A DNA stretch of 64,000 bases, from the NCBI GenBank assembly GCA_951406725.2, contig OX597835.1:4898001-4962000 (forward strand), written 5' to 3'. The notes under the pieces are model-generated. The model saw only the letters and a list, made by a program, of their open reading frames with translations. It did no database searches and was not told where the DNA came from. The first letter of the stretch is position 1. Every line of letters begins with the position of its first letter. The DNA is from Octopus vulgaris (taxonomy: Eukaryota). Positions 763-61,989 of this stretch are shown in pieces. Made by a program: the position numbers and the translations under genes.

Positions 763-905
763 AGTAAAGGAAAGCGAAAGTCTCTACAGTGGGGTCTGCA
801 AACCAGTTAACTTCAAAAAGGGATCAACAGAATACTGTACAAGCTGCACTGATGCACAAATATGTGTTTCAGAACTGAGTCATTTTCAGCCTTGCAACAC
901 AACTG
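763..905 (+). CDS. Exon 1 in window (module A, post-VWD): (R)[14 protein letters not shown]...CNTT(G)
   Basis: ttttcag acceptor, gtaat donor, phase 2-1; paralogous to exon 37002-37156. Confidence 0.85.

Positions 906-61989: not shown

Follow-up and report, generated by a model that had tools for sequence, protein, structure and literature searches.

The window analysed here is a 64,000-nucleotide stretch of Octopus vulgaris contig OX597835.1 (C22), positions 4,898,001-4,962,000, and features outside it are numbered as contig position minus 4,898,000. On its forward strand lie 26 exons with 4,559 coding nucleotides in total. Eighteen of these had been listed in the original prediction as nine exons mirrored by another nine, and all were found to be present, with AG/GT ends and with the claimed lengths (143/155, 110/116, 156/147, 169/175, 191/191, 213/210, 115/115, 255/267, and 240/264 nt) and phases (2-1, 1-0, 0-0, 0-1, 1-0, 0-0, 0-1, 1-1, and 1-1). 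Eight more exons at 19254-35206 complete the proposed 17-exon unit. Its size, put at about 970-990 aa, was computed as 989 aa for unit 2, as predicted, and as 951 aa for unit 1, which is shorter. The strong divergence of the copies was also confirmed, the cores of the two units being 26% identical.

Exons of each module were assigned to classes A to O. The window opens within module 1 at exon I (763-905, phase 2-1), which encodes a Cys-rich segment 3' of a VWD domain, followed by exon J (2177-2286, phase 1-0). Exon K (4937-5092, phase 0-0) encodes the first part of a C8-like helical domain, assigned by homology to the module 2 model described below, and exon L (6419-6587, phase 0-1) encodes the end of that domain and the start of an EGF domain. 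Exon M (8346-8536, phase 1-0) contains the end of the EGF domain, with weak EGF matches, and the start of an IPT/TIG-like domain that ends in exon N (11829-12041, phase 0-0). After a small Cys-rich domain in exon O (12446-12560, phase 0-1) come PAN domains 1 (15194-15448) and 2 (17975-18214). Module 2 begins with exons A (19254-19495) and B (20417-20509), which encode an Ig-like domain of the Ig_VWDE type, the Ig_VWDE matches themselves being to the corresponding exon of module 13 and to orthologues. Exon C (22181-22597) encodes a beta-sandwich with a weak, PapD/ASH-like structural match (Z about 8-9). The VWD domain (24245-35206) is spread over exons D (24245-24321, with an NDPH motif), E (25935-25998), F (28876-29088), G (32294-32405), and H (35098-35206). 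Exons I to O follow at 37002-37156, 37364-37479, 41506-41652, 45111-45285, 46000-46190, 55279-55488, and 58313-58427, and PAN domains 3 (59816-60082) and 4 (61726-61989) close the series. All four PAN exons have phase 1-1 and matched Pfam PAN_1 (E-values 4e-7, 6e-4, 5e-10, and 9e-8, in order), three of them above the curated cut-off and PAN domain 2 below it. In searches with single octopus exons, Pfam gave no match for 12 of 18 exons in one set and 9 of 11 in another. The introns of the window are rich in SINE-like repeats and microsatellites, and contain four fragments (8707-9057 on the forward strand; 11052-11348, 27240-27653, and 46924-47436 on the reverse) that we take to be LINE reverse-transcriptase ends and mariner-like transposase from their resemblance.

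We extended the gene model over 250 kb upstream and 500 kb downstream with exon-class profiles built from the window and flanking exons, and refined the splice sites. Counting modules by extension into the flanks had been proposed as a check in the original prediction, and the count came to 14. The final model comprises 230 exons over 437 kb, from -61,228 to 375,868 (C22:4,836,772 to 5,273,868), and predicts a protein of 13,610 aa and about 1.53 MDa, with 610 cysteines and 186 N-glycosylation sequons. The size of the gene had therefore been much underestimated, as the window holds about 1,520 of the 13,610 residues, or about a ninth. The 230-exon frame has no internal stop, and canonical ends were found in all 228 exons checked. 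The 15 exon classes recur in the same order 14 times with nearly fixed lengths, class B being 93 nt in 13 of 14 modules, class O 115 nt in 13 of 14, and class E 64 nt in 13 of 13, a regularity for which chance is not a plausible source. When a VWD exon was used as query against the 2.8-Gb genome, 14 matches were obtained among the best candidates scored, all at this locus. A public O. vulgaris protein matches the exons of the gene at up to 100%.

The predicted order of domains is a signal peptide, an F5/8 domain, modules 1 and 2 (each followed by two PAN domains), modules 3, 4, and 5, modules 6 to 13 (each with a LamG-like domain), a Thr/Pro mucin exon, module 14, a transmembrane exon, and the last exon. 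Twelve exons lie upstream of the window, encoding the signal peptide, the F5/8 domain, and exons A to H of module 1. The signal peptide exon (-61228 to -61165) was picked among candidates, and has the same start methionine as the public O. vulgaris model. The F5/8 domain is encoded by three exons, at -41292, -30597, and -17646; its Pfam match is weak in octopus and clear in orthologues. At the other end, the mucin exon of 160 aa (334486-334965) and the last exon (375790-375868), which encodes a tail of about 26 residues, were located by means of an O. sinensis record, and the transmembrane exon lies at 374407-374524. The VWD-EGF-PAN-PAN arrangement offered in the original prediction as the repeat unit thus turned out to describe only two of the 14 modules, namely modules 1 and 2. 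PAN-PAN as a universal linker was rejected: a LamG-like domain (cosine 0.98 to Laminin_G_3 clusters) follows each of the eight modules 6 to 13, nothing follows modules 3 to 5, and the last module leads to the membrane anchor.

Several irregularities were observed along the locus. In module 7 alone, exons D and E are fused (138 nt; L023:3698-3835), which is the single intron loss among the 14 modules. Two of the LamG-like linkers, those after modules 10 and 13 (L032:890-3088 and L038:6222-7531), consist of two exons each, split at different positions, and the other six are single-exon. Exon K of module 6 (L021:8724-9082, at about C22:5,060,830) is about 17 codons short relative to the full exon in O. 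bimaculoides; it runs into an AT/GT microsatellite, and its acceptor and first codons are duplicated about 330 nt downstream. This defect may be an assembly fault or a deletion allele. Since the exon has phase 0-0, skipping it would keep the frame, the alternative being a weak donor. Two exon candidates upstream of the window were rejected, one at 33 kb for its wrong phase and one at 37 kb as the antisense of a SKICH reading frame. That reading frame, a minus-strand ORF of 1,057 codons about 35-38 kb upstream of the window (L005:1830-5000; N-terminal Pfam E-value 5e-25) and presumably CALCOCO/TAX1BP1-like, is a nested gene that runs antisense within the intron separating the first F5/8 exon from the second. 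The nearest other gene seen upstream consists of two minus-strand exons about 202-203 kb upstream of the window (L072), which by motif we assume to encode a methyltransferase.

The fold of the module was examined with an AlphaFold2 model of module 2 plus one PAN domain, based on an alignment of 31 sequences (pTM 0.75, mean pLDDT 77; the PAN part was poor, with pLDDT below 50). Residues 259-650 match the D assemblies of mucins and VWF with Z scores of 22-24 (MUC2 D3: Z 23.8, rmsd 3.2, 248 residues aligned) and FCGBP with Z 20.9. Residues 656-780 match IPT/TIG domains (Z about 8-10), and weaker matches link residues 10-111 to Ig/FnIII-like folds (Z 7.8) and residues 110-257 to PapD/ASH-like sandwiches (Z about 8-9). 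Each module of about 800 aa is predicted to fold into a pair of Ig-like sandwiches, a VWD domain joined to C8-like helices in the manner of mucin D assemblies, an EGF domain, and an IPT/TIG domain; a Cys-rich segment completes it. For exon C, PapD/ASH-like is a weak label, because a Foldseek search with its model gave no match at E <= 0.001 and the Atlas result was of low recognition; used as a single query, exon C found no homologue among 201 candidates. An alignment of exon F did find homologues. Twelve of the 14 octopus modules contain a CGxxD..ND motif, which we assign to the calcium-site type of VWD domains, and Pfam VWD matches were found on orthologues. Ig_VWDE (PF25776) matched one octopus exon, in module 13, at E 2e-4, below the cut-off, and matched the Aplysia and Pomacea orthologues above it; a genome-wide search for this family found no match anywhere, nor did its controls. 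PF26129 is present on most relatives.

From its continuous frame and the gene models of other molluscs, the locus is very probably one gene with one predicted transcript. A pair of tandem genes meeting between 18214 and 19254, the alternative raised in the original prediction, was not borne out: a single reading frame continues over the 1,039-nt interval with phase 1-1. The junction is bridged in the public O. vulgaris model and in all four other species tested (Aplysia, B. pfeifferi, Gigantopelta, and Pecten), and the introns before modules 2-14 measure 839-2,255 nt and have phase 1 throughout. At its two ends, the model carries a signal-like start and a transmembrane helix, respectively. It is quite improbable that the locus instead consists of two or more tandem genes, or is expressed mostly as shorter transcripts, for instance one for a secreted N-terminal half and another for a C-terminal half bound to the membrane. 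That possibility is suggested by the public annotation, in which O. vulgaris has two models, CAI9738780 (6,425 aa, from the start to module 8) and CAI9738781 (5,837 aa, from module 8 to the tail), by the fact that every species is seen in pieces, and by C. virginica, which has many overlapping near-identical models. However, the two public models break inside the IPT domain of module 8 at intronic ends: CAI9738780 runs on past exon M and terminates in the following intron, CAI9738781 starts at an intronic methionine without a signal peptide, and an intact exon N lies between them. Exons M, N, and O of module 8 are located at C22:5,109,052, 5,112,266, and 5,114,873. The break points moreover vary by species, and an Argonauta model aligns across the O. 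vulgaris break with 49% identity. The public models also omit several exons of the 230-exon model, for example the fourth PAN exon.

Gastropod records overlap and tile the chain, with Gigantopelta running from the start to module 7, B. pfeifferi and Elysia covering the middle, and Plakobranchus and Pomacea reaching the membrane helix; the cross-species support for a single chain comes entirely from gene predictions. Two JGI proteins on 6,491-nt contigs (P0003, 1,066 aa, and P0100, 897 aa) each form one open frame across a module junction, which, given the short exons of the gene, suggests a spliced transcript in a relative. No record of the whole chain was seen, the longest being 7,323 aa, with the direct search covering proteins up to 6,579 aa. 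In Argonauta hians, the adjacent models P0037 and P0175 have overlapping content and the same end sequence, a duplication or an annotation artefact. The Crassostrea virginica cluster P0008 has 64 members at 90% identity, with many LOC ids on one contig, and covers C-terminal modules; it may have arisen by recent duplication in place, or its members may be haplotype copies.

Records of up to 7,300 aa with two to eight modules in the same arrangement were found in Argonauta, O. sinensis, O. bimaculoides, Gigantopelta, Aplysia, Biomphalaria, Bulinus, Elysia, Plakobranchus, Pomacea, Pecten, and Crassostrea, and those that reach the C-terminal end carry the membrane helix. In a FastTree tree of 71 modules and 775 columns, from which 15 partial modules under 550 aa had been dropped, octopus modules 1-6 and 14 each grouped with the gastropod module of the same position (support 0.96-1.0), and Pecten joined these groups for modules 2 and 3 with support in the same range. 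The best BLAST matches agreed with this pairing for all seven modules. As these modules are orthologous position by position, the array predates the split between cephalopods and gastropods, and the old multi-exon tandem duplication that had been proposed is upheld with this minimum age. Modules 7-13, among which the deep nodes of the tree are poorly supported, represent a lineage-specific expansion, with octopus pairs M8/M11, M9/M12, and M10/M13 at 42-43% identity. Heterobranch gastropods have four such expanded modules and a total of 11, inferred by tiling, against 14 in octopus. The locus would provide a dated case of multi-exon duplication, with seven old modules and lineage-specific growth of the LamG block. 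Short relatives that combine a single module with a membrane helix were found in Lingula, Owenia, Mytilus, Sinanodonta, Physella, Bradybaena, and the hemichordate Ptychodera, and a two-module form in Tubulanus; their front ends vary among F5/8, LamG, MAM, and mucin. When the Owenia relative was compared with solved structures by phmmer, its MAM domain was the only part to find a match. In pieces from Saccostrea, two C-type lectin domains precede a module.

Two kinds of processing signal were found in the modules. A DPH motif is present in 12 of the 14, as NDPH in ten, TDPH in module 7, and GDPH in module 14, and is absent from modules 1 and 3. Octopus and Plakobranchus have, in their last module, a furin-type R-x-K/R-R sequence 235-301 residues past DPH, as do all eight short membrane-anchored relatives checked; at that spacing, the sequence occurs in just two of 42 testable internal modules, some of which come from closely related species. 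In FCGBP, all GDPH sites are reported to be cleaved with the halves remaining disulfide-linked (PMC8267560). Cleavage at GDPH requires the Asp and His residues and stabilises the domain (PMC10880436). The mechanism put forward there invokes a cis Gly-Asp bond, and the excerpted text makes no mention of NDPH (PMC10880436). A single chain with GDPH, NDPH, TDPH, and motif-less VWD domains would offer a natural series for the study of Asp-Pro self-cleavage.

The purely secreted matrix or mucus polymer that had been envisaged for this protein finds no support in the predicted end of the chain. A transmembrane helix and short tail there, found likewise in the Plakobranchus, Pomacea, and Crassostrea records, predict a membrane-anchored protein. 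Our preferred reading, which we hold tentatively and rate at a little under an even chance, is that of a single glycoprotein of about 13,600 residues with type I membrane topology, serving as a tethered, sheddable surface coat that displays sugar- or protein-binding domains in series, well away from the cell. The modules would act as rigid spacers stabilised by calcium and disulfides, and the F5/8, PAN, and LamG-like domains as putative binders of mucus glycans, matrix, or microbes. Asp-Pro self-cleavage, surest at the GDPH of module 14 and possible at the 11 NDPH or TDPH sites, would nick the chain, with the pieces staying disulfide-linked by analogy with FCGBP. At the putative furin-type site of module 14, the ectodomain, over 13,000 residues long, would be severed from a membrane stub and could then be held there or shed. 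That the tissue is an epithelial surface is a guess.

The same single gene could also encode a giant endocytic scavenger receptor in a role like that of megalin or cubilin, capturing glycoproteins or particles with its lectin-type domains and being internalised. We consider this unlikely. Many ligand-binding modules in series would suit such a receptor, LRP1 typically undergoes furin processing close to the membrane, and NPxY-type motifs do occur in the tails of the short relatives from Tubulanus, Sinanodonta, and Mytilus, with NPxL/NPxV-like ends in Plakobranchus, Pomacea, and Bradybaena. The octopus tail of about 26 residues, however, lacks NPxY, which is found in only three of 16 tails examined, and Pfam scans of octopus exons and relatives revealed no LDL-A, CUB, or YWTD domain. 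Equally doubtful in our estimation is a fixed-length cell-cell or cell-matrix link from this gene, that is, a junction or a mechanosensory or ciliary tether like Mesh, usherin, or ADGRV1. The conservation of order and linker type by position in modules 1-6 and the last module, between cephalopods and gastropods, is what would be expected if each position had its own partner, and LamG domains and Ig-like sandwiches are common in such links. Yet the number of LamG modules varies by lineage (14 modules in all in octopus, 11 inferred in heterobranch gastropods), so that the length is not fixed, and the tail is short.

Returning to the sheddable coat, we give an even chance to a wider view that includes it: a single-copy mollusc gene of Cambrian age would encode one of the largest membrane proteins known, with 11-14 VWD modules and up to about 1.5 MDa, and would be the founding giant of a family, so far undescribed, of furin- and Asp-Pro-processed VWD proteins at the cell surface in lophotrochozoans and hemichordates. 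Position-specific roles of its modules would have been kept for more than 500 million years in a lectin-studded coat, hidden by its annotation into 'VWDE-like' fragments. If the single transcript holds, a membrane protein of the MUC16 size class, about three times as large as megalin, has been kept in cephalopods, gastropods, and bivalves. Some of the 'VWDE-like' genes in mollusc infection and stress transcriptomes may in that case be fragments of one gene, the link of those genes to this locus being a suggestion. Infection data from bivalves list VWDE-named genes without architecture in the excerpted texts (PMC9679248, PMC9641012, bioRxiv 10.64898/2026.05.15.723513), the first with nine VWDE genes and the last with Vwde in nuclei from oyster gill and hepatopancreas.

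All parts of the protein are known folds, and it is thus not a new kind of system. The original prediction did not recognise the architecture as a characterised family, and no characterisation was found in the literature; the combination of multiple VWD domains with PAN had probably been drawn already, in a supplementary figure of 2016 (PMC4948705). Lang et al. (2016) mention a multi-VWD protein of lophotrochozoans, to which they assign no function and which they judge probably unrelated to the gel-forming mucins, and their Fig. S4 lists Lottia, Aplysia, and C. gigas proteins labelled PAN_1 (PMC4948705). The multi-VWD protein, which like the giant has multiple VWD domains without VWD-C8-TIL, probably belongs to the same family as the octopus giant; in the excerpted text it receives a passing remark and the figure, without a membrane anchor, module anatomy, or full length. 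No description of the full protein was found in the literature covered, which mostly excludes subscription journals, nor any paper for the six locus ids queried.

Judged by the defining features of these families in a comparison of architecture, the giant is a tandem-VWD surface protein and not VWDE, FCGBP, or a gel-forming mucin; none of the named matches inspected was a vertebrate VWDE. It resembles VWDE in having an Ig_VWDE-type domain before the VWD domain and an EGF domain after it, and databases name the mollusc pieces after VWDE. The VWD domain itself is common to both, as judged by the fold match to mucin/VWF D domains and the Pfam matches on orthologues. VWDE is described as a secreted class of protein with VWD and EGF domains (Scimone et al., PMC9117669; PMC7390686), and the excerpted text of Leigh et al. 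covers deuterostome VWDE only (PMC7390686). In contrast to its single VWD followed by an EGF array and its lack of an anchor, the giant has 14 VWD modules with one EGF each, PAN, LamG, and F5/8 domains, and a transmembrane helix with a tail.

The repeat unit of FCGBP, VWD-C8-TIL, is about 400 aa long. The giant shares with FCGBP the serial VWD assemblies, 14 in number and matching in structure, where human FCGBP has 13, 11 of them with GDPH (PMC8267560, PMC10880436). FCGBP, however, is secreted, whereas the giant is membrane-anchored and built of units of about 800 aa with Ig, EGF, and IPT domains and mostly NDPH. Its C8-like helices are recognised by predicted fold, and an EGF domain comes next, with no Pfam TIL match in the exons and relatives scanned; an F5/8 domain occupies the N-terminus, in octopus and orthologues, in place of FCGBP_N. 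With the gel-forming mucins and VWF (MUC2, MUC5AC/B), the giant has in common the VWD domain and C8-like helical fold, and it has one Thr/Pro-rich segment. It differs from their three VWD-C8-TIL units, long PTS region, and secreted polymer in its 14 modules without a TIL or C8 Pfam match, its single PTS exon of 160 aa, and its membrane anchor.

MUC4, SUSD2, Mesh, and zonadhesin have a layout with type I topology, a membrane-near GDPH VWD, and a mucin segment upstream, and module 14 provides the giant with the same juxtamembrane GDPH VWD; what sets the giant apart is its 14 large modules. The presence of GDPH in SUSD2 is documented (PMC10880436). Pfam scans detected no AMOP or NIDO domain in 29 octopus exons or 19 whole relatives, and no sushi or MAM domain in the octopus exons scanned; zonadhesin-type MAM was likewise absent from the mollusc orthologues scanned, and a MAM domain was seen in one Owenia relative. 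Nothing characterising the short relatives was found in the literature searched. These proteins (Lingula 'mucin-17' XP_013398006 and those of Owenia, Mytilus, Physella, Sinanodonta, and Ptychodera with a single module, and that of Tubulanus with two) share the same module, DPH, furin-type site, and transmembrane helix, and several also carry F5/8, LamG, or mucin segments. They differ in having one or two modules against 11-14 in the giants, and the giant looks like a protein of this short type with a multiplied ectodomain.
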